From Gemmatimonadales bacterium (lineage in GTDB: Bacteria > Gemmatimonadota > Gemmatimonadetes > Gemmatimonadales > GWC2-71-9): a stretch of 64,000 bases of DNA. The notes beneath the pieces are model-generated. The model had not been told where the DNA came from, did not search any database, and saw only the letters and a program-made list of their open reading frames with translations. The position numbers were made by a program, and so were the translations under genes. How positions within the stretch are numbered: the stretch's first letter is position 1; each line of letters starts with the position of its first letter. Where the stretch lies: contig DATLKF010000007.1 of assembly GCA_035538515.1 (NCBI GenBank), positions 131,438-195,437 of the forward strand, given 5' to 3'. Below, piece after piece: positions 1 to 64,000 of this stretch.

Positions 1-1476
1 GCGGAACTGGCGCTGGCGCGTCACGCGACCAGCAAGATTCGGGACGCGACGGACCTGATCGGCGTGGGGACGTTCGGGTTCCGGGGGGAGGCGCTCCCCG
101 CCATCGCATCGGTGTCGCGGTTCGAGCTCGAGACCTCCGCCGACGGTCGCACCGGCACACGGGTACGCGCCACGGGTGGCAAGCGCGAAGGCGTCGACGA
201 GGTCGTGCGGCAGCGGGGCACCACGGTGACCGTGCGGGGATTGTTCTTCAATACGCCGGCCCGTCGGAAGTTCCTCCGCGCGCAAGCCACCGAGACCCGG
301 GCCGCCGCCGAGGCGCTCACGCTGCTTGCGCTGGCGCGGCCCGAGATCGCGTTCACGCTCACGAGCGACGACCGTCGCCTCCTCGACGTTCCTCCGGCCA
401 CCCGCGCGATTGACCGCATCCACGCGCTGTGGGGCCGGGACCTCGCGGACACGCTGGTGCCGGTCGCCCACCGGGAAGGACCGCTCGAGGTGCGGGGCTT
501 CGCGCAGCGACCCGCGCAGGCGAAGCCGGCGGGTCGTCGGGGGCATGTGTTCGTCCGAGGCCGTCCGATCCGCGATCCCTTCCTGCTGCGCGCCGCCGAG
601 GCCGGGTACCGCTCCACGATCACGCCTGGCGACCGCCCGTCCCTGCTGCTCTTCCTGGATCTGCCGGGGGATGCGGTCGACTTGAACGTCCACCCCGCCA
701 AGCTCGAGGTCCGGTTTCGCGACAAGTTCTTCGTGGAAAAGGTCGTCGAGGAAGCTGTGCGGCGGGCACTCGCGCCACTCGCGGCGGCGGCGCCGCTCGG
801 GGCAGGGACCGGGGACTCCGGACTCGGGGCTCGTGCGGCCTGGGACGGACTCTCCGTGCCCCTAGATCTGTTCCCCACGCACTCCCGAACCCCGAGCCCC
901 GAACCCCTAGCCCCGTCTCTGCTTCAGGTCTTCGACACCTATATCGTCTTCCAGGCCGACTCCGGCGTAGCGATCGTGGATCAGCACTCGGCGCACGAGC
1001 GGGTGCTGTACGAGCGGACCATGCGGCAGCTCACCGGTGACGGGGCGCCCGCGCAGCGGCTGCTCCTTCCCCTGACGCTCGAGTTCACGGCTGCCGAGCT
1101 CGAGGCGATCGACGCCCACCGCGAGCTGCTGCGCCGTGTCGGATACGAGGTGGAGCCGTTCTCCGGGCGCGCCGTCGTGATTCACACGGCGCCCAACCCG
1201 CATCCCCGCTTCGACGCGGCGCGCTGCTTCGGAGAGCTCGTCGCCGACCTGGCGGGTGGCCGGTTCGGCGGGCTCGCGAATCGCCTCGAGCGGTTCGCCG
1301 CGACCTACGCCTGTCGCGCCGCCATCAAGGCGGGTCAGCGGCTCGATGTCGACGAGATGCGCGACTTGGTGGCGCGGCTGCTCACGGTCACGCTGCCGGC
1401 GCACGACGTGCACGGGAGGCCCACCATCGTGCAGCTGCCGAAAGACGAGCTCGAGAGGCGATTTGGTCGAGCGTAA
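1..1476 (+). CDS. mutL: DNA mismatch repair protein MutL (5' end outside window)
   Basis: The frame is open from nt 1. The translation carries HATSKI, GFRGEAL, LFFNTPARRKF and C-terminal QRLLLPL motifs typical of MutL. Stop TAA 1474-1476. Confidence 0.92.
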   Translation, partial: AELALARHATSKIRDATDLIGVGTFGFRGEALPAIASVSRFELETSADGRTGTRVRATGGKREGVDEVVRQRGTTVTVRGLFFNTPARRKFLRAQATETRAAAEALTLLALARPEIAFTLTSDDRRLLDVPPATRAIDRIHALWGRDLADTLVPVAHREGPLEVRGFAQRPAQAKPAGRRGHVFVRGRPIRDPFLLRAAEAGYRSTITPGDRPSLLLFLDLPGDAVDLNVHPAKLEVRFRDKFFVEKVVEEAVRRALAPLAAAAPLGAGTGDSGLGARAAWDGLSVPLDLFPTHSRTPSPEPLAPSLLQVFDTYIVFQADSGVAIVDQHSAHERVLYERTMRQLTGDGAPAQRLLLPLTLEFTAAELEAIDAHRELLRRVGYEVEPFSGRAVVIHTAPNPHPRFDAARCFGELVADLAGGRFGGLANRLERFAATYACRAAIKAGQRLDVDEMRDLVARLLTVTLPAHDVHGRPTIVQLPKDELERRFGRA

Positions 1477-1477
1477 T

Positions 1478-1541
1478 GTCGGACCGTCGGACCGTCGGAC
1501 GGACCCGCGCCGATTACCGTCCGACCGTCCGACCGTCCGAC
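1478..1541. repeat. Octamer-unit palindrome filling the mutL-miaA spacer
   Basis: GTCGGACC GTCGGACC GTCGGACGG (1478-1502), a 14-nt loop, then CCGTCCGAC CGTCCGAC CGTCCGAC (1517-1541). 23 of 25 positions pair. Confidence 0.93.
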
Positions 1542-1543
1542 CA

Positions 1544-2488
1544 TTGATCCCCGTGCTCGTCGGACCGACGGCGGTCGGCAAGACCGCGGTCGCCGCCGCG
1601 TGGGCGGCACACGAGCCGATCGGCGTGATATCCGCCGACGCACGCCAGGTGTACCGGGGCCTGGACATCGGCACCGCGAAACCGTCCCCGGATGTGCTGG
1701 CTCGTGCGCCGCACCTGGGACTGGACGTCGTGGCGCCGGGAGAGCGCTATAGCGCCGGCCGGTTCGCTACGGACGCGGCGGCGTGGCTCGAGGAAATCCG
1801 CGGCACCGGACGCCAGCCGGTGATCGTCGGTGGGACCGGCTTGTACGTACGCGCCCTGGCGGATGGGCTGTTCCAGGAGCCGCCCCTCGACCCCGAGCGC
1901 CGCGAGCGGCTGCGTGGCTGGACGGCGGCCGCGCCGGCGGCGCGGCTCGCGCACTGGGCGGCCCGCCTGGACCGGCGCTTCGCCGGAGGCGGCCGCCAGC
2001 GGGCGGCGCGGGCAGTCGAGGTGGCGCTCTTGACGGGTCGGGGGCTCACGTGGTGGCAGCATCACGCGCGCGACAGCGGCGCCATGCGGCCCTGGTACAT
2101 TCATCTCACGCTGCCGCGAGAGGCGCTGCACCGCCGCCTCGCGGAGCGCGTGGACGCGATGCTCACAGCGGGGTGGGTGGACGAAGTGCGTCGGGTATTG
2201 GCGGCCGGCGCGGCGGCCGGGGCTCCCGGCCTCGATGCCGTGGGCTATCGTGAGATCATCGCGATGCTCGCCGGCCGGCTTCCCGAGCGCGAGCTGAGAG
2301 AAGCCATCCTCGTGGCGACACGGCGCTACGCCAAACGGCAGGAAACGTGGTTCAGAAATCAACTGCGTCCTCAGTCCTCAGTCGTCAGTCGTCAGGAGGC
2401 CGTCTGGACATTGGACGCCACCGGCGCGCCGGACTGGATCGCCCGCCAGATTCACGAGCGTTGGACCGTCGTCAAGGCAGGTGACTGA
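1544..2488 (+). CDS. miaA: tRNA dimethylallyltransferase MiaA
   Basis: P-loop GPTAVGKT, QVYRGLDIGTAKP, GGTGLY and RQETWFR motifs. The ORF-track start at 1256 overlaps mutL out of frame, so the start is placed at TTG 1544 (alternative GTG 1553), right after the palindrome. Confidence 0.85.
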   Translation: MIPVLVGPTAVGKTAVAAAWAAHEPIGVISADARQVYRGLDIGTAKPSPDVLARAPHLGLDVVAPGERYSAGRFATDAAAWLEEIRGTGRQPVIVGGTGLYVRALADGLFQEPPLDPERRERLRGWTAAAPAARLAHWAARLDRRFAGGGRQRAARAVEVALLTGRGLTWWQHHARDSGAMRPWYIHLTLPREALHRRLAERVDAMLTAGWVDEVRRVLAAGAAAGAPGLDAVGYREIIAMLAGRLPERELREAILVATRRYAKRQETWFRNQLRPQSSVVSRQEAVWTLDATGAPDWIARQIHERWTVVKAGD

Positions 2489-2530
2489 TGACTGATAACT
2501 GACGACTGATAACTGACGACTGACGACTCC
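2369..2530. repeat. Heptamer-unit palindrome bracketing the miaA 3' end (left arm coding, right arm spans the stop and the spacer to bshA)
   Basis: The left arm is CCTCAGT CCTCAGT CGTCAGT CGTCAGG (2369-2396). The right arm has 7 heptamers, GACTGAT GACTGAT AACTGAC GACTGAT AACTGAC GACTGAC GACTCC, within 2481-2530. The arms are 84 nt apart. Confidence 0.88.
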
Positions 2531-2531
2531 C

Positions 2532-3659
2532 ATGCGCATCGGCATCACCTGTTACCCGACCTACGGCGGCTCCGGCGCGGTGGCCACCGAGCTCGGGCTC
2601 GAGCTCGCCCGCCGCGGGCACGAGGTGCACTTCGTCTCCTACGCCAGTCCATTCCGGCTGCGGGGATACGTGGAGCGCGTGACGTTCCACGAGGTCACGC
2701 AGACCGAATACCCGCTGTTCGAGCAATCCTCGCCGTATGCGTTGGCGCTGGCGGTCAAGCAGCATGAAGTCGCGATGCGCGAGCGACTCGATCTCATGCA
2801 CGTGCATTACGCCATCCCGCACGCCGCCACCGCATGGCTCGCGAAGCAGATGCTCAAGGGGGAACGGGACCTGAAGCTCGTGACCACGCTGCACGGCACC
2901 GACATCACCCTGGTGGGCCAAGATCCGTCGTACTTCACCCTGACCAAGTTCTCCATCGAGCAGTCGGATCGCGTGACCGCAGTCTCGGAGTTTCTCCGTA
3001 CGGAGACGTACCGTGCCTTCGGATGCGATGGCTGCGACGTCATCGTGATTCCCAACTTCGTCTCGCCCGCCGAGTATCACCCGCCCAGCGATGCGACATG
3101 TCGTGGCTCGCTCGCGCCCGCGGACCACAAGGTGCTGGTGCACGTCTCGAATTTCCGACCGGTCAAGCGCGTGACGGACGTGGTGCGCGTGTTCGCGGGC
3201 GTGCGGCGCGAGATCCCGGCCACACTGGTGCTCGTCGGGGACGGCCCCGATCGCGATGCAGCGGAGCAGGAAGTCGATCGCCTCAAGATCCGCCGCGATG
3301 TCCGCTTCCTCGGGAAGGTCGACAACGTCGGCGACATCCTGCGGGGCTGCGATCTGTTCCTGCTGCCGTCCGAGACGGAGTCGTTCGGCCTCGCGGCACT
3401 GGAAGCCATGGCCTGCGCGGTCCCGGTCGTCGCGAGCGCCGTGGGGGGCCTGCCGGAGGTCGTGGTGGACGGGGAGACCGGCTTCCTTACCCCCGCGGGA
3501 GACGTCGCCGCCATGATCGGTCACGCGACCCGCGTGTTGCGCGACGCCGCGTTGCACGCCCGGCTGCGCAACGCGGCCGCCCGCCGCGCCGTGGAGTTCG
3601 CAGCAGAGCGCGTCGTCCCGCGCTACGAGCGGCTGTACGAAGAGGTCTTGCGTGCTTGA
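2532..3659 (+). CDS. bshA: GT4 glycosyltransferase, N-acetyl-alpha-D-glucosaminyl L-malate synthase BshA-like
   Basis: N-terminus RIGITCYPTYGGSGAVATELGLELARRGHEVHF, HVHYAIPHA, TLHGTDIT and a C-terminal E(x7)E-type motif (ESFGLAALEAMACAVP) match my recollection of Bacillus BshA along the whole length. Confidence 0.78.
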   Translation: MRIGITCYPTYGGSGAVATELGLELARRGHEVHFVSYASPFRLRGYVERVTFHEVTQTEYPLFEQSSPYALALAVKQHEVAMRERLDLMHVHYAIPHAATAWLAKQMLKGERDLKLVTTLHGTDITLVGQDPSYFTLTKFSIEQSDRVTAVSEFLRTETYRAFGCDGCDVIVIPNFVSPAEYHPPSDATCRGSLAPADHKVLVHVSNFRPVKRVTDVVRVFAGVRREIPATLVLVGDGPDRDAAEQEVDRLKIRRDVRFLGKVDNVGDILRGCDLFLLPSETESFGLAALEAMACAVPVVASAVGGLPEVVVDGETGFLTPAGDVAAMIGHATRVLRDAALHARLRNAAARRAVEFAAERVVPRYERLYEEVLRA

Positions 3660-4476
3660 CCTCCTGCGGCTCGTCCGGGTTCAGAACCTGCTAGTCGCCG
3701 CGGTCGGGGTGTTGGCCGGTGGGTGGATCGGGCTCGGCGCCCTGGTCACGCCCGGCGTCCTGGCGCTCGCGGCACTCGCGGCCGTCGGATTCGGAGCGGC
3801 CGGTAACGCGCTCAACGATCTCTGGGACAGCGCCGCCGACCGGATCAACCGGCCGGGCGGAGAGCGTCCGCTCGCCTCGGGTCGCTTGGCGCGCGGCACC
3901 GCCGACCTGTGCGTCGCTGGCGGGACGTTGCTGGGCTTCGCCGCCGCGGCGCTCGTGAGCGGAACCGCGGTCCTGGTCGGCGCCGCGGCGCTCGCGGTGC
4001 TGGCGCTCTACTCTCCGGTGCTCAAGGCGCGCGGCTTCCCCGGTAATCTGGCGGTGGCGATCATCGCCGGCCTGCCGCTCGAGTATGGCGCCATCGCGGT
4101 CGGTCACGCGGCGGCGGGGATAGTGCCCTGGATTCTTGCCGGGTGGATTCATCTGGTGCGCGAGATCGTGAAGGACGTGGATGACCAGGAGGGCGACCGG
4201 GCACTCGGTCGCCGGACGCTCCCGCTGGTTTTGGGCCCCCGGCGCGCCACGGTGATCGCTGCGGTGTTAGCCGCGGTGTTCGTTCCGCTGTCGCTCGCCC
4301 TGCCCGCGTGGGCGAACTACCGCGGCGCCTATTTTCTGATCGCGCTGTTTGCACAGCTAGTGGTGCTGGCGGTGGCCAGCCGGCTGTTTTCCGGTCGCAT
4401 AAAGGGGAACAGTCGCCTGCTGAAGGGAGCGATGCTTGTGGGGATGGTGGCCCTCGTCGCGGGACGGGTGATATGA
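3652..4476 (+). CDS. UbiA-family prenyltransferase (polytopic membrane protein)
   Basis: Asp-rich motifs NDLWDSAADRINRP and KDVDDQEGD, with multiple hydrophobic helices. Overlaps the bshA stop by 8 nt. Confidence 0.7.
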   Translation: MLDLLRLVRVQNLLVAAVGVLAGGWIGLGALVTPGVLALAALAAVGFGAAGNALNDLWDSAADRINRPGGERPLASGRLARGTADLCVAGGTLLGFAAAALVSGTAVLVGAAALAVLALYSPVLKARGFPGNLAVAIIAGLPLEYGAIAVGHAAAGIVPWILAGWIHLVREIVKDVDDQEGDRALGRRTLPLVLGPRRATVIAAVLAAVFVPLSLALPAWANYRGAYFLIALFAQLVVLAVASRLFSGRIKGNSRLLKGAMLVGMVALVAGRVI

Positions 4477-5255
4477 CCATGTGGCAGGGAATCGTTCTGG
4501 GACTGGTGCAGGGGCTCACGGAGTTCCTCCCGGTCTCGAGCTCCGGGCATTTGCGCGTGCTCGAGGTGGTCGCGGGAGTCCATGCGCCCGGTGTCTTCGT
4601 GGAGGTGAGCCTGCACGTGGCGACGTTGGGGTCGGTGCTCGTCGTTTACGGGCGGCGCCTGTGGAGCATCGTGCGCGGGGCGCTGGTGCGACAACCGGCC
4701 GATCTGCGGACGGCGGGCTTGCTCGCGATCGCGACGCTGCCGGCTGGCGTCATCGGGGTCATGTTCCACCGGCAAGTCGAGGCAGCAGCATCACTGCTGC
4801 TCGTCGGCGCGGGATTCATGGTGACGGGTTTCATGAACTGGTCCACTCGCGGGCGGGCCGGTAGCCGCCTGGAGCCCACGGTCGCGGTTGCCACGGGGAT
4901 CGGGTTCGCGCAAGCGCTGGCGGCGGTATTCCGCGGCGTCTCTCGGTCGGGGTCGACCGTGTGCGCAGCCCTATGGGGCGGCCTCGGCCCGGCGGCCGCC
5001 GCGGAGTTCAGCTTCCTGCTCGCGGTTCCGGTGATCGCCGGCGCCGCTCTGGTCGAAGGACGGCACATGGCGGTGAGCGTCGCGGCGGTCGGGGCGGCAC
5101 CGCTGGCGCTGAGCTTCGTCCTCGCGTTTGCGAGTGGGATCTGGTCCATCCGGTTTCTCGTGGCGCTGCTCCAGCGAGGCCGGTTCTACACGTTCGCGCC
5201 GTACAACTGGGCCATCGGCCTGCTGACGATCGCGTACGCGCTGTGGCGCGGCTGA
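4473..5255 (+). CDS. uppP: undecaprenyl-diphosphate phosphatase UppP/BacA
   Basis: Hallmark EFLPVSSSGHL near the N-terminus and a polytopic membrane profile. ATG 4473 forms an ATGA overlap with the upstream stop. The upstream part of ORF 4308.. overlaps the previous gene. Confidence 0.87.
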   Translation: MTMWQGIVLGLVQGLTEFLPVSSSGHLRVLEVVAGVHAPGVFVEVSLHVATLGSVLVVYGRRLWSIVRGALVRQPADLRTAGLLAIATLPAGVIGVMFHRQVEAAASLLLVGAGFMVTGFMNWSTRGRAGSRLEPTVAVATGIGFAQALAAVFRGVSRSGSTVCAALWGGLGPAAAAEFSFLLAVPVIAGAALVEGRHMAVSVAAVGAAPLALSFVLAFASGIWSIRFLVALLQRGRFYTFAPYNWAIGLLTIAYALWRG

Positions 5256-5995
5256 CGCTCGACGGCGTCCCGGCCGCGGATCTCGCCGCCCGCTGGGGTG
5301 TGCCGCAATGCGGACTCTTTCGCCGGCTCGACTCGACCCTGACGGCAGTGCACGATCTCGCCCCGCAAGGAGCGCCCGCGGGCACGCTGGTGATCGCCGA
5401 AGAGCAGACCGCCGGCCGTGGACGGGACGGCCGCACCTGGCACTCCCCTCCGGGCGGCGTCTGGCTCGGCATGCTGCTGCGCCCGGCACGTGGCGAGCTC
5501 GCGGTCCTGTCCGTCCGCGTGGGGCTCGCCGTCGCCGACGCGGTGGACGCCCTGCTCGGCCGGGTCGAGACGCAGCTCAAGTGGCCGAACGACGTCGTGC
5601 TGGGAGAGCGCAAGCTCGCGGGAATCCTGTGCGAGGGCCGCTGGCACGGCGAGACACTGCAATGGCTGGCGCTCGGCGTAGGGATGAACGTCTGCAACCC
5701 GATCCCCGTCGCCGTGGCGCGCCAAGCGGTGGCGCTGAGCGAATGGCTCCCGTCCGTGCAGCGGCTCGACGTGCTGGATCGCTTGGTGCCAGCGCTTCAC
5801 GAGCTGACAGTCGGCGATCCCGCGCTGAGTGAGCGCGAGTGCGCGGCGTTCGCGGCGCGCGACTGGTTGCTGGGTCGCCAGTTACGGTCGCCGGCCGCCG
5901 GTCGCGCGCGTGGCCTCCGCCCCGACGGCGCCCTGCTCGTCGATCTCGGGGCGGCGACGGTGGCCGTGCGGGAGGGGCATGTGGAGCTGGCATAA
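5243..5995 (+). CDS. birA: biotin--[acetyl-CoA-carboxylase] ligase BirA (no HTH domain)
   Basis: GRGRDGRTWHSPPGG and KWPNDV...KLAGILCE motifs. Start inferred at in-frame GTG 5243 (13-nt overlap with uppP). The start is uncertain. Confidence 0.75.
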   Translation: MARLTLDGVPAADLAARWGVPQCGLFRRLDSTLTAVHDLAPQGAPAGTLVIAEEQTAGRGRDGRTWHSPPGGVWLGMLLRPARGELAVLSVRVGLAVADAVDALLGRVETQLKWPNDVVLGERKLAGILCEGRWHGETLQWLALGVGMNVCNPIPVAVARQAVALSEWLPSVQRLDVLDRLVPALHELTVGDPALSERECAAFAARDWLLGRQLRSPAAGRARGLRPDGALLVDLGAATVAVREGHVELA

Positions 5996-6024
5996 GAGGG
6001 CGGGAGAGGTCGGTAGAGGTCGGG
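5995..6024. repeat. Left arm of decamer palindrome: 3 tandem copies of AGAGGKCGGK
   Basis: Read directly: AGAGGGCGGG AGAGGTCGGT AGAGGTCGGG, beginning on the last base of the birA stop codon. It is the reverse complement of the array at 6471-6510. Confidence 0.9.
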
Positions 6025-6105
6025 CGGGCTTCGATCCGCGTCTTTCCGCCACCTTGTGCGACGATTCGATCCCTGTCTTGGTAACCCCGGCGTTACGTTG
6101 CTGCC

Positions 6106-6468
6106 ATGCCACCCTATGAGTCGCTTCGAGCATGGCAGGAATGTCATAAGCTCGTCCTCGAGACTTATGGCGTCACGAAGTCGTTTCCGAGGGAAGAGAC
6201 CTACGGCTTGACCTCCCAGGCCCGACGGGCTGCGTTCTCGGCGGCTGCGAACATTGTCGAGGGATCAGCCAAGCGCGGCGTTCGCGAGTGTCGTCGTTTT
6301 CTCAACGTCACCATCGGCTCGCTGGCAGAGCTCGGCTATACGTTTCGCGTTGCACGAGAACTCGGGATCGTGACAAACCGGGAGTGGGAGACTCTGACGG
6401 ATCTGCAAAAGCGCGCCGGGTTTCTCACGTGGCGGCTGTATCGGTCGTTGGACCCCGGCGGCCATTGA
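6106..6468 (+). CDS. four-helix-bundle protein (23S rRNA intervening-sequence protein / TIGR02436-PF05635-like)
   Basis: 120 aa. YESLRAWQECHKLVLETY...TSQARRAAFSAAANIVEGSAKRG..E..RFLNVTIGSLAELGYTF is the characteristic pattern of this family. The gene is visibly lower in GC than its neighbours. Confidence 0.8.
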   Translation: MPPYESLRAWQECHKLVLETYGVTKSFPREETYGLTSQARRAAFSAAANIVEGSAKRGVRECRRFLNVTIGSLAELGYTFRVARELGIVTNREWETLTDLQKRAGFLTWRLYRSLDPGGH

Positions 6469-6470
6469 TA

Positions 6471-6510
6471 CCGACCTCTGCCGACCTCTACCGACCTCTA
6501 CCGACCTCTG
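6471..6510. repeat. Right arm of decamer palindrome: 4 tandem copies of CCGACCTCTR
   Basis: Read directly: CCGACCTCTG CCGACCTCTA CCGACCTCTA CCGACCTCTG, starting 2 nt after the stop of the four-helix-bundle gene. Confidence 0.92.
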
Positions 6511-6522
6511 TAGCTTTGCTCC

Positions 6523-7302
6523 ATGCTCCTCGCCATCAACATCAACAACACCGAAACGAAAGTCGGCCTGTTTCGGGGCGACAGCCTCGAGGCCCATTGG
6601 CGGCTCACGACCACGCCCTCCCGCACACCCGACGAGTGGGCGACCGCGCTCACGCAGTACCTGGCGCAAGAAGGCTGGTCGACTCAGGAGGTTCGAGCGG
6701 CGGTGGTCGCCTCCGTAGTGCCGCCGGTCACCCAAGGACTGTGCGAGGCGGTGGAACGCGCCACCACCGTGCGGCCGGTGGTCGTGGACGGCCGCTCGCC
6801 GCTGCCCATCACGCTCGACGTCGAGGAGCCGTTGCAGGTGGGCGCGGATCGCATCCTCAACACGCTCGCGGCGGCGCAGCTGTTCCGGCGTGACACCATC
6901 GTCGTGGACTTCGGCACCGCGACGACGTTCGACTGCATCACCGCCGACGGTCACTTCCTGGGCGGCGTGATCATGCCCGGCATCCGCACTGCGTCGGACG
7001 CCCTAATCCGCGGAACCGCCAAGCTGCCCGCCACGGACCTCACGCCTCCCGCGCACACCATTGGGCGTCGCACCGACGAGGCGATCCGCGCCGGCGTGCT
7101 GCTGGGCACCGCCGACGCGGTAGATGGGATCGTGCGCCGCATCAAGGCCGAATGGCCTAAGGGCGCCACGCCCCAGGTGATCGCGACCGGCGGACTGGCG
7201 AATCTCGTGGCGCCCCTCGTTCGCGGGATCGAGTCGGTACATCCTGACCTCACCCTTACGGGGCTTCGCATCGCCGCGACGGCGCTCGAGCTGACGTGGT
7301 AG
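6523..7302 (+). CDS. coaX: type III pantothenate kinase CoaX
   Basis: N-terminal LLAININNTETKVGLF, VVDFGTATTFD and ATGGLA motifs of the type III PanK/ASKHA fold. Confidence 0.87.
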   Translation: MLLAININNTETKVGLFRGDSLEAHWRLTTTPSRTPDEWATALTQYLAQEGWSTQEVRAAVVASVVPPVTQGLCEAVERATTVRPVVVDGRSPLPITLDVEEPLQVGADRILNTLAAAQLFRRDTIVVDFGTATTFDCITADGHFLGGVIMPGIRTASDALIRGTAKLPATDLTPPAHTIGRRTDEAIRAGVLLGTADAVDGIVRRIKAEWPKGATPQVIATGGLANLVAPLVRGIESVHPDLTLTGLRIAATALELTW

Positions 7303-8216
7303 CGGACGCGCGCGCCTTGAACGCGTGGCGTCGCTGGGGCTACCGCGTGCTGCCCGGCGACCTGTTCTCCTACGTCCTGCACATGCGGCCCGCGGAGTGG
7401 CCGATTATGGCGGGGCACACGGTGCTAGGCTACGGTCTCGCGGCCGGCCTTTCGGGGGTGGTGCGTGGTGCGTGGTTGCCGCAGGTGATGCTCGCCCTTC
7501 TCGTGTGGGTGATCTGCTTGAACGGCGGCACGCTCGCGCTCAATTCTGTCTTCGACGAGGACGAGGGCGACATCGGATACCTGAACACGCCGCCACCCCT
7601 GCCGCGGTACCTGCTTGGCTTCAGCGTCGGGCTGCTCGTCCTCGGGCAGCTCTTGAGCTTCGCGCTCCCGCCCGCGTTTCGCGTCGCCTACGGCATCTGT
7701 TTCGTGCTCTCGGTGTTGTACTCGGTGCCGCCGTTCCGCCTCAAGGCGGTGGCGGGCGTCGACTGGCTGATCAACATGTGGGGCTTCGGCACACTGACGC
7801 CGTTCGCCACGTGGGCCGCGACGGGACGCCTGCTGCAGGTCGGCGACGCGCTCGTGCTACTCGGGTTCTGCCCGCTGTTTGCCGGGCTCTATCCACTCAC
7901 GCAGCTGTATCAACTGGATGAGGACCGGCGGCGCGGCGACCGGACGCTGGCCTTGATGCTCGGCCTCAAGGCGAGCCTCGCCATCTCCATCGCGTGCACG
8001 TTACTTGCCTTCGCGCTGTTCGCGTGGGCCACGGTAGTGCTGCGCGTGCCGGCGTGGCTGCTCGTCGTGCCGCTCGCCGTGTGGCTCGCCGTACTGGGGC
8101 CGTGGTACGAGCGCCGCGACACGCTCGCCCCCGCCGATCACCAGCGCGGCATGTACCGGGCGCTCGCCGCGTGGGCGGTCACCGATGTCGCCATCCTCCT
8201 GGTGTTTGCCCGGTGA
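7296..8216 (+). CDS. UbiA-superfamily prenyltransferase-like membrane protein
   Basis: Polytopic. Motifs LNSVFDEDEGD and YQLDEDRRRGDRTL resemble the two Asp-rich UbiA motifs. GTG start overlaps the coaX stop. Confidence 0.6.
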   Translation: MVADARALNAWRRWGYRVLPGDLFSYVLHMRPAEWPIMAGHTVLGYGLAAGLSGVVRGAWLPQVMLALLVWVICLNGGTLALNSVFDEDEGDIGYLNTPPPLPRYLLGFSVGLLVLGQLLSFALPPAFRVAYGICFVLSVLYSVPPFRLKAVAGVDWLINMWGFGTLTPFATWAATGRLLQVGDALVLLGFCPLFAGLYPLTQLYQLDEDRRRGDRTLALMLGLKASLAISIACTLLAFALFAWATVVLRVPAWLLVVPLAVWLAVLGPWYERRDTLAPADHQRGMYRALAAWAVTDVAILLVFAR

Positions 8217-8270
8217 GAGCGCGCGCTTAGATTTCGCGACCTGATTGGTTCTGACAGAGGAGGCCGAGGC

Positions 8271-8885
8271 ATGGCTGTGACCGCGACACCACAGGCAGCG
8301 GACCGCTCCGACTTCCGCACGGTCACCGTGAGCGGCGCCAAGCTCGGCGTGGCGACTGGGGTGGCGGTCGTGCTCGTCGTGGCCGCGTCCCGTGGCGTTC
8401 CCGACGTCGGAGGCCTGCGGGCCGTGGTGGAGGCGCTCGTCGTGTTGGTGGCGGCCGTCGCCGCCGGCTTCCTTCCCGGGTCATGGACCGCCGCGCGGAC
8501 CACCGAGGGCATTGCCGCCGCTGCGGCCGTTGGCCTCGTGGGCACGGTCGTGTTCACCGCGATCGACATCACGTTGCTTCGCCCGTTCAAGGCGTATCCG
8601 TGGACCTGGGACGCCATCGGCGGCGGCAGCAGCTGGTGGTATCTCCCCGTCTGGTGGATGCTGGGCACGTTCCTCGCCTGGATGGGTGCGATCGTCACCG
8701 CTAGGGCGGGGGCGGGGGAAGCGACGCTGCTCCGTCGGGCCGGACCTGCAGTGGCCGGCAGCGTCATCCTCGCTGTTGTCGTGCGGCTCGCCGGCCTCGC
8801 TGTGCCGCTTCCGGTGGCGGTGGGCGGCGCGTTCACGCTCGTCCTCGCGGCGCTCGCCCTCGTCGCCCTGGCCCGTAAAGGCTAG
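8271..8885 (+). CDS. hypothetical integral membrane protein
   Basis: 204-aa ORF preceded by GAGGAGG 6 nt upstream, with several hydrophobic helices. No family recognised. Confidence 0.5.
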   Translation: MAVTATPQAADRSDFRTVTVSGAKLGVATGVAVVLVVAASRGVPDVGGLRAVVEALVVLVAAVAAGFLPGSWTAARTTEGIAAAAAVGLVGTVVFTAIDITLLRPFKAYPWTWDAIGGGSSWWYLPVWWMLGTFLAWMGAIVTARAGAGEATLLRRAGPAVAGSVILAVVVRLAGLAVPLPVAVGGAFTLVLAALALVALARKG

Positions 8886-8905
8886 GGCGGGCAAGGGGGG
8901 CGCCG

Positions 8906-9190
8906 GTGCCCCGCTGGCTGGCTCATCTCCTGGTCGTCGTTGGCTGGTTGCTCACGCCGGTCTGGGCGTGGCTCGCCTCCTACGTCGGCCTGTGGGCCGG
9001 CGCGCTCGTCGCCACCGGCTTCGGGCGTCCGCTGATCATGCTCGCCGTCGCGGCCGGCGCGGCGGCGCTGAGCGGCTTCGCAGCCCTTGCGTTGTGGGTA
9101 CGTTTCATGCGACGCGTGCCGCATCTCCTATCCCACCACATGGCGCCGCGCGCGTCGGAGGAGCAGCGGGCGATTGCCGCCGCTGACTAG
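8906..9190 (+). CDS. hypothetical small membrane protein
   Basis: 94-aa ORF with two or three predicted TM helices. No family recognised. Confidence 0.4.
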   Translation: MPRWLAHLLVVVGWLLTPVWAWLASYVGLWAGALVATGFGRPLIMLAVAAGAAALSGFAALALWVRFMRRVPHLLSHHMAPRASEEQRAIAAAD

Positions 9191-9197
9191 GGGGGGG

Positions 9198-10199
9198 CTG
9201 AGGCGCGGGGGGCGGGGGCGGGTAGCGCTCGTGCTCCCGTTCCTCGTGCTTCCCCTGTCGGCGACCCTCGCCGCCCAGGGACGCGGACTGGAGTTCCATC
9301 GCGGCCGCTGGTACAACGGGAATCGAGCCGACGTCTACGAGTTTCGCACCAGCTCGCGCCTCGGGGGCGGGCCGCTTACGCACGGGTTCGGCCTCGCATT
9401 GCTGGTGAGCGATACGCTCGGCCGCCGCCGGGCGTTTTACGGATTGGGCTACGAGCTCCAAGCCTGGCGAGGGCGCGCCACGCTGGCGCCGTACGCGCTC
9501 GCCGGCCTGGCCCTCGGCTTCTCGACCGACACGTCCACGCAGGAGGTGGCCGCACAGTGGACGGTGGGCGGTGGCCTTGAGTGGCGACCGCTGGGCTGGC
9601 TGGGGTTCGGGAGCGAGGTTCGCTACCGGCTCGAGGATCGCGGTCCGCGTGGGTTCTGGAATCCGCGTCCGGACGCGCGCCGAGGAGTTAGCGCGACGAT
9701 CGGGATCTCCGTCGGCTTGGGAAAGGCGGGGCGAGGCGGTGAGGGGGCGCGCGGGGGATACGGCGCTCCGCCCGAGCTACCACCGCCGAAGCCCCCGGCG
9801 ACGATAACCGGCAACGCCGCGGACGTCGTGCAAACGGCCATCGAGTCGCTGGGCACGCCGTACCTCTGGGGTGGGACGGAGGACAACGGGTTCGACTGCT
9901 CAGGGCTGATCCAGTACGCCTACGGGCAGCACGGCATTCGGCTGCCGCGCATGAGCCGGGATCAGGCGCGCGCCGGCGCCGAAGTGCCCCCTGTGATCGA
10001 CGCACTGCGGCCGGGCGATGTGCTGCTGTTCAGCGCGCGTCCGGGAGGCGGCGTAACCCACGTCGGGATGTACGTCGGCGAGCTGAAATTCATCCACAGC
10101 TCGACCCGGGGCGTGAAGCTGTCCCGCCTCGATCCGCAGGACCCGGAGGGCGGCTACTGGCTGGATCGGTGGGTGGGGGCGCGGAGAATAATTCCGTGA
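9198..10199 (+). CDS. secreted NlpC/P60-family peptidoglycan hydrolase with N-terminal beta-rich domain
   Basis: C-terminal YLWGGTEDNGFDCSGLIQYAY...HVGMYVG...FIHS (Cys-His NlpC/P60 core). Signal peptide RRGGRGRVALVLPFLVLPLSATLAAQ. Start unresolved: in-frame TTG 9087 (104-nt overlap with the upstream ORF), CTG 9198 or GTG 9231. Confidence 0.72.
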   Translation: MRRGGRGRVALVLPFLVLPLSATLAAQGRGLEFHRGRWYNGNRADVYEFRTSSRLGGGPLTHGFGLALLVSDTLGRRRAFYGLGYELQAWRGRATLAPYALAGLALGFSTDTSTQEVAAQWTVGGGLEWRPLGWLGFGSEVRYRLEDRGPRGFWNPRPDARRGVSATIGISVGLGKAGRGGEGARGGYGAPPELPPPKPPATITGNAADVVQTAIESLGTPYLWGGTEDNGFDCSGLIQYAYGQHGIRLPRMSRDQARAGAEVPPVIDALRPGDVLLFSARPGGGVTHVGMYVGELKFIHSSTRGVKLSRLDPQDPEGGYWLDRWVGARRIIP

Positions 10200-10678
10200 A
10201 CCGTTGCACGACGTCACGACGCCACGAGGCACGGGGGCCCGCCTGGTCCCAGCTGTTCGTGCAACTTGGCGTCTTGGCGTCGTGTAACGCCCTCGTTGCC
10301 GCCTGCGCCCCGGCCGCCCGCTACGAGGAGCCGTCCGACCTGCGCGCCTACGAGATCCTGATCACCCGCCATGACTCCCTCGGACGCGAACTGGCACAGG
10401 GACTCAAACGCCGCGGGTTCACCGTGCGCGATCGAGTGCGGGGTGGGGGGCGGCCGACCGCGTACCTGTTCGCATTCACGTTTCGCGAGACCGACCCTCC
10501 TGGGGGAGGGGTCACCTGGCTCGACGTCCGACTGGCCGACACCCGGTCCGGCGCGATCGTCGCCGCGGCATCGGTGCCGCTCGACTCGCTGGGCGGACCG
10601 CTAGCGGAGCGTGCCGTGGTCATCGTCGACTCGCTCGCCGCGTCGGCCACCCTGCGGCAATCCCTGTCGCCCCCTTGA
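10196..10678 (+). CDS. hypothetical lipoprotein
   Basis: GTG 10196 forms a GTGA overlap with the upstream stop. Lipobox-like LVAAC follows a hydrophobic segment. No family recognised. Confidence 0.45.
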   Translation: MNRCTTSRRHEARGPAWSQLFVQLGVLASCNALVAACAPAARYEEPSDLRAYEILITRHDSLGRELAQGLKRRGFTVRDRVRGGGRPTAYLFAFTFRETDPPGGGVTWLDVRLADTRSGAIVAAASVPLDSLGGPLAERAVVIVDSLAASATLRQSLSPP

Positions 10679-12772: not shown

Positions 12773-12775
12773 GAG

Positions 12776-12880
12776 CTAGACGCGTAGACGCACAGACGGA
12801 AAGCGGTACGTAGGAAACAGGGGTCGGGAGCATCTCCCGGCCCCGGTGTGCTGTGGGCCACTGTGCGTCTGTGCGTCTAG
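12776..12880. repeat. Octamer-unit palindrome (AGACGCRY arms) enclosing an inner GC hairpin
   Basis: The left arm CTAGACGCGTAGACGCACAGACGG (12776-12799) is approximately the reverse complement of CCACTGTGCGTCTGTGCGTCTAG (12858-12880). The inner 11-bp hairpin GGGGTCGGGAG-CAT-CTCCCGGCCCC lies at 12820-12844. Confidence 0.85.
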
Positions 12881-35103: not shown

Positions 35104-35885
35104 TGGCCGGTCCCACGATCCGACTGTCCGACCGTCCGACTTTGCGCGAGCAGCCGGTGGGCGACTCCGCCGTCCCACGAATGGAGCTGCGCGAGTGGGC
35201 CGACCGTTATGGCATCGTCGCCGGGATCACCACACGGGGACGAGGCTTTTCGCTCGGCCTCTGGAGCGATGAGAACGTCGGCCAGGTGATGTCACGCTGG
35301 CGCGCCGTGGCCGCCGCCGTCCGCACCCGCTTTCCGGGCATCATTCTCGCACACCAGGTCCACGGCACCGCGGTGCAATGGCACGCGGCGGGCGCGGCAG
35401 GCTGGCTCATTCTGGACGGCCTGGACGGACACGCCACCGGCGTCCCGGGTCTGCTCCTCTCTGTCACGGTCGCGGATTGTATCCCGGTGTACCTAGCGGT
35501 GCCCCAGAAGCGGGTGGTGGCGCTGCTGCACGCCGGGTGGCGGGGGACCGTGGCGCGGGTGCTGGAACGCGGGGTGGAGGTCTTGAAGCGCCACGCATTC
35601 GTACGAGCGGGCGATATCGTAATGCACTGTGGAGTCGGCATTTGCGGGGCGTGCTATGTAGTAGGTTCTGAAGTCCTGACGCAGTTCAGCGGCCGTCCGG
35701 AGTCGGACTCCGGGCAGCTCGATCTGCGGGCCGTCCTGGCCCGGCAGGGCCAGGAACTGGGCCTCGGCGAGATCACGCTCTCGCCGTGGTGCAGCGCGCA
35801 CGACCGGGATCAGTTCTTCTCGCACCGCGCCTCCGGCGGCCGCGACGGTCGGATGATCGCGTACGCGGGACTGCCGCTCGCTTGA
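35100..35885 (+). CDS. pgeF: peptidoglycan editing factor PgeF (YfiH/DUF152, laccase-domain protein)
   Basis: HQVHGT, TVADCIPV, LLHAGWRGT and CGACY..G motifs. GTGATG junction with the murA stop. Confidence 0.85.
   Translation: MMAGPTIRLSDRPTLREQPVGDSAVPRMELREWADRYGIVAGITTRGRGFSLGLWSDENVGQVMSRWRAVAAAVRTRFPGIILAHQVHGTAVQWHAAGAAGWLILDGLDGHATGVPGLLLSVTVADCIPVYLAVPQKRVVALLHAGWRGTVARVLERGVEVLKRHAFVRAGDIVMHCGVGICGACYVVGSEVLTQFSGRPESDSGQLDLRAVLARQGQELGLGEITLSPWCSAHDRDQFFSHRASGGRDGRMIAYAGLPLA
35120..35140. repeat. Octamer repeat copy (CCGACNGT x about 2.5) inside the pgeF 5' coding region
   Basis: CCGACTGT CCGACCGT CCGAC encodes IRLSDRPT. It partly pairs with GCGGACGGTCG at 35085-35095 in the murA 3' end. 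Confidence 0.7.
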
Positions 35886-36421: not shown

Positions 36422-36564
36422 TGTCAGTCATCCGTTATCAGTCATCAGTCATGATCGGACCGGGGTACGGTGACGACCAACAGATAACGGATGACGGATA
36501 ACTGATAACTGACGACTGATGACTGATGACTGATGACTGATGACTGATAACGGATGACTGATAG
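36422..36564. repeat. Heptamer-unit palindrome filling the rimP-nusA spacer (right arm = 12 tandem heptamers CNGAYRA)
   Basis: The left arm 36422-36454 (TGTCAGTCATCCGTTATCAGTCATCAGTCATGA) is the reverse complement of part of the right arm. The right arm (36481-36564) is 84 nt, exactly 12 x 7, and ends on TAG immediately before the nusA ATG. Confidence 0.92.
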
Positions 36565-44989: not shown

Positions 44990-46000
44990 ATGATTCGACT
45001 CTTCGCCAACGCCGACTACGACTTCATCAAGTGGCGCCGCTGGGCGTACGGGCTCACGGCCGCGATCATCATTCCCGGGTTCTCGCTGTTCCTGGGGCGC
45101 GGCTTGAACTATTCGATCGAGTTCACCGGCGGTACGCTCATCCAGGTGCAGACGCCGCAGCCCGTGGGGACCGAGCGCATCCGCGGCGCGCTCGACGCAG
45201 CGGGCATCCGCGACGCCGAGATCCAGCAATTCGGCGCGCCCAACGAGTATGTGATCCGCGCCCGGCTCGGCCGCGCGAACGCCGCCGTCGAGGGGTCCAC
45301 GGAAACGACCGCGGCGGCGGTCGACTCGGCGCTGGCGCGGAGCCTGGGGCCCCCGCCCGAGCACTATAAGATCCTGCGCACCGAGGCGGTGGGTCCGAAG
45401 GTGGGTCGCGAGCTGCAGGGCAAAGCGTTCCTCGCCATTTTCTTCTCGTTCATTGTTACGCTCGTGTACCTCGCGATCCGGTTCGAGTGGCGCTTTGGGC
45501 TGGCCGCGGTGCTCGCGACGTTCCACGACATCCTGACCACGATCGCGTTCATCCGCTATTTGGACCTCGAGGTGAGCCTCGTCGTGGTTGGCGCGGTATT
45601 GACGATGGTGGGGTACTCGCTCAACGACACCATCATCATTTTCGACCGGGTGCGTGAAAACCTGCGCAAGTTCCGGCGCCAGAACCTGTACGAGATCCTC
45701 AACCTCTCCATCAACGAGACGCTGCCGCGCTCCGTGCTGACGCACGGCACCACGATGGCGACCACGCTGGCGCTGGTGCTGCTCGCGGGCGAGGTGCTGC
45801 GGCCGTTCGCGCTCGTGATGACGTTCGCCATTTTCACGGGGACGTTCTCGTCGATCTACATCGCCGCGCCGATCCTCATGTACATCGAGAGGCGCTGGCC
45901 CGGCCAGGATGCACGCGGCGCCCGGGCGTTCAAGCCGGCAGCGGAACCCGAGCGAGCGCCCGCGAGCATTCCCGGGCCTCGGTCGAAAGCGCCGGTGTAA
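44990..46000 (+). CDS. secF: protein translocase subunit SecF
   Basis: Immediately follows secD. GLNYSIEFTGGT and GYSLNDTIIIFDRVRE motifs. Confidence 0.93.
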   Translation: MIRLFANADYDFIKWRRWAYGLTAAIIIPGFSLFLGRGLNYSIEFTGGTLIQVQTPQPVGTERIRGALDAAGIRDAEIQQFGAPNEYVIRARLGRANAAVEGSTETTAAAVDSALARSLGPPPEHYKILRTEAVGPKVGRELQGKAFLAIFFSFIVTLVYLAIRFEWRFGLAAVLATFHDILTTIAFIRYLDLEVSLVVVGAVLTMVGYSLNDTIIIFDRVRENLRKFRRQNLYEILNLSINETLPRSVLTHGTTMATTLALVLLAGEVLRPFALVMTFAIFTGTFSSIYIAAPILMYIERRWPGQDARGARAFKPAAEPERAPASIPGPRSKAPV

Positions 46001-46080
46001 CGGTGACCGGGGTTCGGTGTCCGGTGTCCGGGACCGCTAGGATGTGACACCGGACACCGGACCCCGGACCCCGGTCACCG
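46001..46080. repeat. Heptamer-unit palindrome (GGTGTCC / GGACACC) filling the secF-tatD spacer
   Basis: The left arm CGGTGACCGGGGTTCGGTGTCCGGTGTCCGGG (46001-46032) pairs with ACACCGGACACCGGACCCCGGACCCCGGTCACCG (46047-46080). The 14-nt loop ACCGCTAGGATGTG contains the tatD GTG. Confidence 0.9.
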
Positions 46081-46850
46081 AGCTTATCGACGCCCACTGC
46101 CATCTCGGCGATGGGGCGTTCGATCGGGATCGGGATGCGGTGCTCGCGCGAGCGCGCGAGGCCGGCGTGCGTCACGTCGTGGTGATCGGGGGGACCCTGG
46201 CCGAGAGCGAGCGCGCCGCCCTGCTGGCGCGGTCTCGCCCCGGGCTCTCCGCCACGGCGGGTGTGCACCCCCACGAAGCGCAGCACTGGTCGGCCGATAC
46301 GGCCACCCGCCTCGGAGACCTGCTGGCGCTACCCGAAGTGGTGGCTGTGGGCGAGACCGGTCTCGACTACCATTACGACCATTCGCCCCGCGACGCACAA
46401 CGGCGTGCCTTCGAGGCCCACCTGGCGCTGGCGAGCGAGCTCGGGAAGCCGGTGGTCGTGCACGCTCGCGAAGCCGACGACGACATCGCCGCGATGCTCA
46501 AGGGCGCGACGGCACCCGTAATACTGCACTCGTTCAACTCGGGGCTACGTGTATTCGAGGCGGGGATGGCAATCGGGGCCTACTTCTCGTATTCCGGGAT
46601 GATCACGTTCCGAAACTGGAGCCCCGCCGTCCGACCGTCCGACTGTCCGATGGACCGTCTATTGGTCGAGACCGACGGTCCGTATCTTGCTCCCGAACCG
46701 CACCGCGGCCAGCGCAACGAGCCGGGCCTGGTGCGCCTGGTGGCCGAGGCGCTCGCCCGGGCGCGCGGTGAGCCGGTTGCGAGCATCGAGCGGGGCACCA
46801 CGGCCAACGCCCGCCGACTGTTCGGCGCGCGGCTGGCGATCACCCTCTAG
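46044..46850 (+). CDS. tatD: TatD-family metal-dependent hydrolase
   Basis: LIDAHCHL, GETGLDYHY, VVHAREA and LLVETDGPYLAP motifs. The only in-frame start upstream of HCH is GTG 46044, inside the palindrome loop. Confidence 0.85.
   Translation: MTPDTGPRTPVTELIDAHCHLGDGAFDRDRDAVLARAREAGVRHVVVIGGTLAESERAALLARSRPGLSATAGVHPHEAQHWSADTATRLGDLLALPEVVAVGETGLDYHYDHSPRDAQRRAFEAHLALASELGKPVVVHAREADDDIAAMLKGATAPVILHSFNSGLRVFEAGMAIGAYFSYSGMITFRNWSPAVRPSDCPMDRLLVETDGPYLAPEPHRGQRNEPGLVRLVAEALARARGEPVASIERGTTANARRLFGARLAITL
46627..46650. repeat. Three in-frame octamer repeats (CCGTCCGA CCGTCCGA CTGTCCGA) inside tatD
   Basis: Read directly. The 24 nt encode AVRPSDCP just upstream of the conserved LLVETD motif. 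The unit is the same as in the mutL-miaA palindrome. Confidence 0.85.
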
Positions 46851-63783: not shown

Positions 63784-64000
63784 GTCGGACGGGCGGACGG
63801 TCGGACCGTCGGAAGGTGGCAGCGTGGGTCGTCCTCACTGCCGTTCTGTCCTTCTGTCCGACCGTCCGACTGTCCGCCCAGAACGACACGACTCCTCCTC
63901 CCGTCGTCACGACGGGAGCCCTCGTGGTCCCCACCGACACATCTCACCGCGTACGCCCGATGGGCGCTTTCTTTCGGTCCCTGCTCGTGCCGGGATGGGG
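63780..64000 (+). CDS. hypothetical secreted protein (3' end outside window)
   Basis: ATG 63780 forms an ATGA overlap with the upstream stop. The frame is open to the window end. N-terminus MSRTGGRSDRRKVAAWVVLTAVLSFCPTVRLSAQ looks like a signal peptide. Not in the ORF track because no stop is reached. Confidence 0.4.
   Translation, partial: MSRTGGRSDRRKVAAWVVLTAVLSFCPTVRLSAQNDTTPPPVVTTGALVVPTDTSHRVRPMGAFFRSLLVPGW
63784..63879. repeat. Octamer-unit palindrome (GTCGGACS / SGTCCGAC) inside the 5' end of the last ORF
   Basis: The left arm 63784-63813 (GTCGGACGGGCGGACGGTCGGACCGTCGGA) pairs with the right arm 63846-63879 (TCTGTCCTTCTGTCCGACCGTCCGACTGTCCGCC). About 21 of 25 core positions are complementary. 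Confidence 0.85.

Follow-up and report, generated by a model that had tools for sequence, protein, structure and literature searches.

Palindromes with tandem-array arms at gene junctions and within reading frames of Gemmatimonadales: architecture, allelic variation and possible origin

The 64,000-nt stretch of DNA analysed here (hereafter the window; contig DATLKF010000007.1, positions 131,438 to 195,437 of the forward strand) comes from a soil Gemmatimonadales genome, its contig being also present in a Logan assembly made from a soil run, and includes, among others, the genes mutL, miaA, bshA, birA, coaX, groEL, rimP, nusA, secF and tatD. At junctions between such genes, and in several cases inside them, it carries nine two-armed palindromes in which each arm is a tandem array of a short unit and the second array is inverted with respect to the first; two further arrays stand alone. 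At least six unit families occur in these 64 kb. The palindromes, the lone arrays and a gene enclosed by one of the palindromes are:

800..915, + strand: palindrome in the MutL linker, arms 800-833 and 883-915, loop of about 50 nt, folding z-score -3.4
1478..1541, + strand: type example, between mutL and miaA, octamer GTCGGACC in three copies
2367..2528, + strand: module at the 3' end of miaA, arms 2367-2395 and 2482-2528
5995..6509, + strand: decamer palindrome in the birA|coaX gap, arms 5995-6024 (AGAGGTCGGN, three copies) and 6469-6509 (NCCGACCTCT, four copies)
6106..6468, + strand: gene of family PF05635 (Pfam) in the loop of the decamer palindrome
10203..10289, + strand: octamer palindrome, three copies of CACGACGY followed by two or more of CTTGGCGT, z-score -6.5
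12776..12880, + strand: octamer palindrome 3' of groEL, CTAGACGC type, arms 12776-12799 and 12858-12880
35119..35141, + strand: lone octamer array, 2.9 copies of TCCGACYG in the 5' part of a Cu-oxidase_4 open reading frame (ORF), without inverted partner
36422..36563, + strand: palindrome between rimP and nusA, left arm 36422-36452, right array 36479-36563, z-score -7.7
45992..46080, + strand: palindrome between secF and tatD, GGTGTCC type, arms 45992-46031 and 46046-46080, z-score -8.6
46627..46650, + strand: lone octamer array, three copies of CCGTCCGA inside tatD, without inverted partner
63784..63876, + strand: octamer palindrome, GTCGGACS, arms 63784-63817 and 63844-63876, z-score -4.7

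Inverted pairs were detected with Tandem Repeats Finder and a script that joins arrays of the same unit, in reverse-complement orientation, lying no more than 700 nt apart. This procedure returned seven pairs in the window (at 1478, 2367, 5995, 10207, 36424, 45992 and 63784), while sequences simulated under Markov models of order 1, 3 and 5 gave 0.03-0.05 pairs per window and at most one. The palindrome 3' of groEL was found by eye and by folding (-72.8 kcal/mol, z-score -9.5). The palindromes, first proposed in an earlier note made from the letters alone, are therefore real, and most of the loci listed there stand, but 35119-35141 and 46627-46650 are lone arrays, and the palindromes at 800-915 and 10203-10289 had been missed.

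The comparison set consists of 80 genome and 80 metagenome loci around mutL-miaA-bshA (160 loci, cited below by their L numbers; 1.88 Mb, i.e. about 1.9 Mb). All relatives of the window miaA are Gemmatimonadales metagenome-assembled genomes (MAGs), the nearest sharing 84% MiaA identity among genome contigs and 79% among metagenome contigs, and micro-evolution was for this reason studied in other lineages of the clade. We found 216 inverted array pairs in the set, or 1.15 per 10 kb, with a period of 7 nt in 187 (87%) and of 8 nt in 21. The median arm measures 30 nt (interquartile range 26-32) irrespective of unit length, the copies per arm being 4.3 (median) for 7-nt, 3.4 for 8-nt and 3.8 for 10-nt units. 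Both arms lie within coding-like ORFs in 84 of the 216 pairs (39%), in a sample that is dominated by three orthologous sites. An artefact of assembly, a concern already voiced in the earlier note, is excluded because 22 pairs of identical modules occur across independent assemblies and because modules are present on contigs of 300-600 kb (L020, L067, L035). The clade carries hundreds of hairpins of about 30 bp, the arms of which are 3-5 tandem copies of a 7-10-nt unit.

The type example has a left arm (1478-1502) composed of GTCGGACC GTCGGACC GTCGGACGG, a loop of 14 nt, and a right arm (1517-1541) composed of CCGTCCGAC CGTCCGAC CGTCCGAC. Folding gives one hairpin of -45.3 kcal/mol in which each arm has two unpaired positions (z-score -6.1, none of 200 shuffled sequences being equally stable); the mutL stop (1474-1476) precedes it, and the start of miaA (TTG at 1544 or GTG at 1553) follows. 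At this site most relatives have a short spacer: of 107 unique spacers, 58 measure 4-19 nt, e.g. TAG-CGTCCGACCC-TTG, and that of L153, the ancestral form, consists of CGTCCGACCC. L137 possesses a one-armed array, three octamers of CGTCCGACCC, and two-armed octamer palindromes are found in the window, L066, L047 and L048; the series is consistent with a local seed that was first amplified and then duplicated in inverted orientation. Slippage combined with hairpin-templated copying, suggested in the earlier note as a common generating mechanism, agrees with this progression from short spacer to one-armed to two-armed form. A widespread (GAATGCG)4|(ATTCCGC)4 family occupies the same spacer in other relatives. 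In its derivatives half of the loop is missing together with one of the arms, so that the left arm alone remains in L082, L094, L086 and L091 and the right arm alone in L095 and L083.

Two further features of this spacer were observed. A mini-ORF of 23 codons (ATG 1476 to TGA 1545-1547) traverses the type-example hairpin and overlaps mutL at its stop (TAATG) and miaA at its candidate start (TTGA); translation could thus be passed on from mutL to miaA, or the mini-ORF may be due to chance in GC-rich sequence. A separate palindromic family of conserved sequence (…TGTCCTTMAGGACA…GCCGAGC.CACSCTTYRGSGTG…), not built of tandem units, is found at L010 (9920-9990 and 16180-16230), at L125 (10440-10590) and in the mutL|miaA spacers of L019, L041, L149 and L158; its presence varies among close strains, and in appearance it resembles transposable elements of the miniature inverted-repeat kind (MITEs) or repetitive extragenic palindromes (REPs).

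The module at the 3' end of miaA comprises a left arm inside the gene (2367-2395, four copies of GTCCTCA/GTCGTCA), a loop formed by the last ~29 miaA codons, and a right arm (2482-2528, 6.7 copies of TGACTGA/TAACTGA) that extends from the miaA stop to 3 nt before the bshA ATG (2532). In the outgroups, and within the clade in a few genomes without the hairpin (L016, L055, L051), the miaA "QLR" motif is separated from the bshA ATG by 77-92 nt, and stop and start overlap as ATGA. In carriers the left arm is inserted between QLR and VWTLDAT, and the right arm between ERWxx and the ATG. Since the loop is ancestral miaA coding sequence flanked by two separate insertions, the module cannot have come from insertion at a single site. 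In 17 genomes the two arms are translated in frame and the ATGA overlap is retained, and in alleles of the CAGNCGT type the miaA stop is supplied by the right arm, whose CTGACGN array has TGA in all three frames by construction. L152 has the right arm alone.

We parsed 150 miaA modules, of which 129 are unique and 112 both unique and two-armed. These 112 alleles are built of 40 different heptamers, with a within-arm periodicity of 0.93, and in 95 of them the right unit is the reverse complement of the left one within one mismatch, compared with 13% of random pairings. The duplex formed by the two arms of one allele has a mean energy of -55.8 kcal/mol vs -32.4 kcal/mol for arms taken from different alleles, and not a single allele has an own-arm duplex weaker than -30 kcal/mol. 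These alignment-free tests were used in place of column-wise covariation, which, among alleles of the same length, is uninformative because a single unit type dominates one length class. Units of GTCAGNC-like and GGGAGNC-like type are intermixed on the BshA+MiaA tree, and even sister genomes can carry different types. Throughout the clade, a near-perfect stem of about 30 bp thus holds its position, period and length while its sequence drifts.

Closely related strains reveal how the modules vary. Among contigs that share at least 97% identity over their 400-nt flanks, 2-4 discrete alleles are found, and the number of mismatches per 100 nt, 0-2 up to the edge of the module, rises to 35-63 inside it; such sharp edges are seen at three consecutive modules (mutL-internal, mutL|miaA spacer and miaA 3' end), and synonymous sites of the loop are diverged between alleles as well. 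Local hypermutation is rejected: when alleles of a single class are compared, divergence amounts to 1.7-1.9% in the arms and 1.3% in the loop, about the same as the 1.2% of the flanks, and the divergence of units follows that of the loop in a clock-like manner. The reverse pattern is also found, i.e. modules 97-99% identical within flanks only 86-91% identical, and because nearly identical modules sit in diverged flanks, we conclude that modules are exchanged as cassettes. In L092 the miaA 3' module is a chimera (compare L095 and L089), in which a left arm and loop of the GGGAAAC type are joined to a right arm of the GCTCCC type and the arms mismatch; this allele is direct evidence of recombination inside the module. 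To judge from these sequences, the modules are old units exchanged between strains and species. Ordinary homologous recombination ending at the module borders would probably leave no visible tract, because the border sequences are exceptionally conserved. A unit specific to each genome, as expected of a single trans-acting template or binding factor, is rejected as the main cause, since the units of the mutL-internal and miaA modules are barely more alike within a genome (mean distance 2.6) than between genomes (3.1; p = 0.016).

The gene in the loop of the decamer palindrome (6106-6468) encodes a four-helix-bundle protein of 120 aa that belongs to Pfam family PF05635 (23S_rRNA_IVP; hereafter IVP), which is also the family of Avd, the accessory protein of diversity-generating retroelements (DGRs). 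The ancestral birA|coaX gap is 9-11 nt long, and in carriers decamer arms enclose either a short loop, as in L004, which has nothing else, or the PF05635 gene. The gene points forward in three lineages (the window, L087 and L151) and is reversed in four (L150, L049, L104 and L111), with a reversed remnant in L005. This distribution of orientations is what inversion between the inverted arms would be expected to produce. The right arm (6469-6509) ends about 13 nt before the coaX start, not within the 0-2 nt that the earlier note had given for array ends. Both coaX and the gene following groEL have, 7-10 nt before their ATG (window 6509-6525 and 12893-12913, respectively), a -10-like motif (TATCTT or TAGCTT, as in CTATCTTAGCCGCCCATG) that is conserved, being found also in relatives; it suggests promoters for leaderless or near-leaderless mRNAs directly 3' of the hairpins.

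The remaining palindromes of the window share the architecture and differ in their relation to the genes. That at 800-915, with a G-rich, heptamer-like left arm and a C-rich right arm of the CCCGAAC type, is translated in its entirety within mutL, and orthologous mutL-internal modules are present in 21 relatives. The palindrome at 10203-10289 begins directly 3' of the stop of an NlpC/P60 gene, inside the predicted 5' part of the next ORF, and its CACGACGY unit family recurs in L005, L007, L038, L049 and L066. The one 3' of groEL encloses an inner GC hairpin at about 12820-12845, and units of the CTAGACGC type occur in L024, L032 and L057 (a match of the unit only). Between rimP and nusA, four units of the TCAGTCA type (36422-36452) face about 12 units of GATGACT/GATAACT (36479-36563), an array that stops 1 nt before the nusA ATG (36565). 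Because the arms are unequal (~12 units on the right vs ~4.5 on the left), this stem can pair in many registers; the minimum free energy structure has an ensemble frequency of only 1.6%. The left arm of the secF|tatD palindrome (45992-46031) spans the secF stop (45998-46000), and its right arm (46046-46080) follows the tatD GTG (46044) and is translated as an N-terminal extension of TatD, the Pfam domain starting at residue 15. The palindrome at 63784-63876 lies inside an ORF that starts with ATG 63780 (in an ATGA overlap with the upstream stop), and its two arms encode the n- and c-regions of a signal peptide. The earlier note had the palindromes fill whole intergenic spacers and abut genes with unusual precision. 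The spacers are not ordinary ones, as 2367-2395 lies inside miaA, 46046-46080 in tatD, 800-915 in mutL and 63784-63876 in a signal peptide, and the abutment does not extend to the 39% of pairs in which both arms fall within coding-like ORFs.

Its negative observations have held up. No hairpin within 1-15000 was flagged by a terminator scan for a U-tract, the tails of the others being checked by reading, and no RAYT (REP-associated tyrosine transposase), other transposase, reverse transcriptase or integrase was found by Pfam among 31 ORFs of the window or among the annotated ORFs in 1-11300. Rfam at gathering thresholds gave no match at any hairpin. Elsewhere in the window, a repeat of another kind, a G-run array of five GGGGGGGCY units at 30246-30291, lies inside or beside an ORF without a Pfam match and could form a quadruplex. 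At 60547-60622 (- strand) Rfam reports a SAM_alpha riboswitch (38.8 bits vs a threshold of 36), notable outside Alphaproteobacteria, upstream of a GHMP-kinase gene that overlaps an aspartokinase/homoserine-dehydrogenase gene by ~160 nt. A tRNA-Sec gene is found at 53468-53561 (Rfam 81.5 bits, with ARAGORN in agreement).

What the alleles display directly is the position, period and pairing of the arms, insertion at two sites, intermediates, exchange and inversion. In the explanation that we favour, and to which we would give about an even chance, the palindromes grew in place by slippage and inverted templated copying and are kept perfect by copying from arm to arm. Replication slippage would turn a short stretch of local sequence, 7 nt long in 87% of cases and 8, 10 or 13 nt in the others, into an array of 3-5 copies, and intramolecular template switching would then produce this array a second time, inverted, at a distance of 10-95 nt (in one case of about 450 nt). 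Template switching between the arms of inverted repeats is known to homogenise the arms, invert spacers and make perfect stems in one event (PMC8794818, PMC7202029, PMC8604942). In maintenance, each arm would keep templating the other; because periodic arms pair in several registers, a change in one unit would be either erased or spread through all units of both arms, and copying out of register would homogenise units and arms alike. Long palindromes would also be hot spots of recombination and rearrangement, a probable cause of the pattern that we see, namely swaps of whole arm-loop-arm modules, deletions of single arms and inversion of a gene-bearing loop. The modules persist at cistron junctions that originally overlapped or lay a few nucleotides apart, in disordered linkers and at N- and C-termini, those at ORF ends and in linkers being often translated in frame; these are sites where extra sequence is tolerated. 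Transcripts would hold stems of -45 to -73 kcal/mol at cistron boundaries, which probably protect or process RNA 3' ends, and translation of the downstream cistron would probably depend on ribosomes opening the stem.

Several points weigh against this account. Within an allele class the arms diverge only ~1.5 times as fast as the flanks, which gives no hint of a turnover that is rapid and ongoing. The rate of change of the units is 0.3-0.7 times that of third positions in the loop, and such slow units, together with strong pairing in all 112 alleles, are equally explained by selection on structure. A purely mutational model with neither hot spot nor selection fails to predict the sharp islands of divergence and the near-identical modules in diverged flanks, and the dominance of 7-nt units and the arm length of ~30 nt are not accounted for. 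Another idea, telomerase- or reverse-transcriptase-like addition of repeats at double-strand breaks, was rejected, because neither the single unit per genome nor the reverse transcriptase that it would require is seen.

If the hairpins were instead selected as RNA elements (RNase III sites, stabilisers of 3' ends, terminators lacking a U-tract or devices of translational coupling), selection would keep the stems complementary and the tandem-repeat arms would reflect only how stems lengthen. Position, arm length and pairing are indeed kept in all 112 alleles while third positions of the loop are near saturation and units change more slowly than these; between the 3' arm and the start codon that follows there are 0-13 nt, in the window as in relatives; RNase III needs roughly 20 bp, which arms of ~30 bp exceed; and the IVP locus copies the layout of the intervening sequences (IVSs) of 23S rRNA, a long stem around an IVP ORF. 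Persistence and placement at junctions are explained as well in this manner as by copying between arms. However, G.U pairs on the transcribed strand of 67 hairpins show no excess in the sense orientation (96 sense vs 118 antisense) and both strands fold equally well, so that no RNA-specific signature is apparent; the test is a weak one, because stems this stable tolerate any single mismatch, and it lends no support to the selection for RNA hairpins considered in the earlier note. Cleavage or termination in the 39% of pairs that lie wholly inside ORFs would truncate housekeeping mRNAs, close relatives (L016, L055, L051) lack the miaA module with nothing replacing it, one-armed and chimeric alleles persist, and no Rfam family matches. 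We regard this explanation, the main rival, as unlikely, though one to be kept in mind. The population data could, on the other hand, reflect a dedicated or selected cassette system, with balancing or diversifying selection or with a recombinase acting at the hairpin base (by attC- or IS200/RAYT-like chemistry), for which the Avd-like IVP protein could be a hairpin-binding factor. The 2-4 discrete alleles within flanks at least 97% identical, the jump in mismatches exactly at the edges of three modules in a row, the near-identical modules in flanks of 86-91% identity, the lack of hypermutation in place and the IVP gene in the module loop of several lineages all argue in its favour. Yet no recombinase, reverse transcriptase or nuclease gene was seen in the 64-kb window, the hairpin bases have no conserved core sequence, and allele differences extend beyond adenines and are thus not DGR-like; moreover, conservation is unusually high at the module borders (KRQETWFRNQL, MRIGITCYPTYGGSG and the first part of the MutL C-domain), and ordinary homologous recombination ending there would leave no trace. 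We consider such a system improbable.

The bolder form of the last idea, that these are more than by-products of mutation and form loci of an unrecognised kind, i.e. hairpin cassettes at fixed positions in and between housekeeping genes, hypervariable in sequence, exchanged precisely at their edges and maintained as polymorphisms that are old, multi-allelic and trans-specific, is a long shot; if it were true, diversifying selection on hairpin sequence or a structure-specific exchange mechanism would be implied, and the Avd-like IVP protein in the module loop could be a hairpin-binding partner. Two other explanations fit poorly. One holds that the arrays are sequence-specific simple sequence repeats, either (GGGANNN)4 G-quadruplexes as in Xanthomonas and Nostoc or protein-bound TAACTGA arrays, the inverted partner being secondary. 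About half of the miaA alleles are (GGGANNN)4, with the G3N4 pattern and the four-unit mode of Xanthomonas, and the TGACTGA/TAACTGA arrays of the window (2482-2528 and 36479-36563) stop 1-3 nt short of a start codon, as is also the case in Beggiatoaceae (PMC4679880). Nevertheless, the same site, period and architecture are also filled by non-quadruplex units without a common motif (CAGCCGT, CATCCGT, CGTACGC and others, 40 units in all), at least six unit families share one window, and units at two modules of one genome are, as said above, only weakly more alike than those of different genomes, which makes this explanation very doubtful. The other invokes mobile palindromes of the MITE, REP/BIME (bacterial interspersed mosaic element) or Rickettsia palindromic element (RPE) kind, spread by a transposase encoded elsewhere. 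In keeping with it, the GTCGGACS octamer occurs at four loci of the window and ACTGAYR at two, palindromes of the CACGACGC type lie at differing sites among genomes, and the arm-IVP-arm and arm-short loop-arm forms at birA|coaX resemble an element and its deletion derivative. Against it, the loops of the miaA and mutL modules are ancestral host coding sequence, so the arms are not one insertion; target-site duplications and conserved ends are absent, no transposase was found in the window, and units differ at orthologous sites. We find mobility in this sense highly improbable, and the earlier note was right to see one architecture with many units here and not the spread of one element.

The most striking properties of the modules are their allelic cassette polymorphism and their exchange between species. 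With 112 alleles built of 40 units at one orthologous site, in which complementarity, period and length are intact and beside which one-armed intermediates, a chimera and deletions are visible, they offer a natural experiment on the origin and upkeep of long perfect hairpins. They make it testable whether compensatory evolution of stems is driven by selection or by templated copying, and how far essential genes tolerate structured periodic sequence, since stems of about -55 kcal/mol are translated in miaA, mutL, tatD and signal peptides. Should selection or an enzyme drive the exchange, the modules would be a variable locus of a new type. As sharp islands of divergence in near-identical strains, and probably as breakpoints of metagenome assembly, the modules affect strain typing, estimates of average nucleotide identity and the quality of MAGs of soil Gemmatimonadales. 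Many metagenome contigs (L106, L138, L139, L148, L160, L029, L037 and others) end or start ~40-200 nt from miaA, in or beside the mutL|miaA or miaA 3' modules, which suggests that polymorphic hairpins break assemblies.

Among known systems, several can be set apart by single features. The units are contiguous and the second array is inverted, which, as the earlier note had stated, excludes CRISPR arrays; intrinsic terminators are excluded by the lack of a U-tract after the stems, and DGR targets by allele differences of all kinds, the lack of hypermutation and the lack of a reverse transcriptase in the window. No integron integrase was seen in the window. MITEs insert as single units, whereas here the sequence between the arms is ancestral miaA coding sequence present in hairpin-less relatives. 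In the IVSs of 23S rRNA, as at 5995-6509, a long stem encloses an IVP (PF05635) ORF, but the palindrome of the window lies in the birA|coaX gap and not in rRNA, its arms are decamer arrays, and its loop is inverted between lineages, so it is not a 23S rRNA IVS. REPs fall into a few conserved sequence families whose head is GTAG or CGTC; they lie outside genes, and their arms are not made up of tandem arrays. The palindromes described here resemble REPs and BIMEs in being short, in following stops, in their many copies per genome and in lacking a U-tract; they have, however, at least six unit families in 64 kb and 40 units at one site without a fixed head tetranucleotide, and 84 of 216 pairs have both arms in ORFs, those of miaA being translated, which sets them apart from REP/BIME families. 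Rickettsia palindromic elements, which Ogata et al. are said to have described in 2000, are reportedly one mobile family inserted in frame in protein genes. The likeness lies in hairpin repeats being tolerated and translated in housekeeping ORFs; the difference is that RPEs insert as units, whereas the present arms were inserted separately on either side of host sequence, with a different unit at each site.

Quasi-palindrome template switching, in which one arm is copied from the other, stems become perfect and spacers are inverted, is the engine that we propose here (PMC7202029, PMC8794818, PMC8604942). It has been described for non-periodic inverted repeats, whereas the present arms are periodic and can pair in several registers. 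We know of no description of multi-register periodic arms that homogenise both units and arms. Tandem heptamers are shared with the TAACTGA repeats and with the short tandemly repeated repetitive (STRR) heptamers of cyanobacteria, and in the window TAACTGA/TGACTGA stands directly 5' of the bshA and nusA starts. TAACTGA repeats upstream of start codons are almost all direct (169 direct vs 1 indirect) and of one unit (MacGregor 2015, PMC4679880), while here the array is one arm of a palindrome and unrelated heptamers occupy the same site in relatives. The nearest precedent is that of the (GGGANTN)n arrays of Xanthomonas, including GGGAATC, in which four is the commonest number of units and of which each genome has 70-75 pairs in convergent, inverted orientation; about 90% of them are intergenic, mostly just 3' of an ORF, and their length and sequence vary among close species, while the single or inverted-pair type is kept (Rehm et al. 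2015, PMC4692102). Heptamers, about four units and convergent pairs of arrays are common to both systems (here a period of 7 is seen in 187 of 216 pairs, the median number of copies being 4.3). The Xanthomonas arrays, however, are one G-rich family with GGG in every unit, whereas at least 40 heptamers as well as 8-, 10- and 13-nt units occur here, many of them unable to form quadruplexes, and GGG is confined to the GGGANNN alleles, being absent from CAGCCGT, CATCCGT, GTCGGACC and TGACTGA; in 39% of the present pairs both arms lie in ORFs and are translated; and discrete orthologous alleles, cassette exchange and loop inversion have not been reported for the Xanthomonas arrays. A literature search on tandem or palindromic repeats of Gemmatimonadetes, and on GGGAATC repeats, returned nothing relevant. 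The earlier note's impression of an undescribed class therefore needs qualification, inverted pairs of tandem heptamers being already known from Xanthomonas. As far as we have found, what is new is the combination of many unit families under one architecture, separate arms placed around host coding sequence and both translated, multi-allelic cassette exchange at orthologous sites, and an invertible loop that carries a gene.

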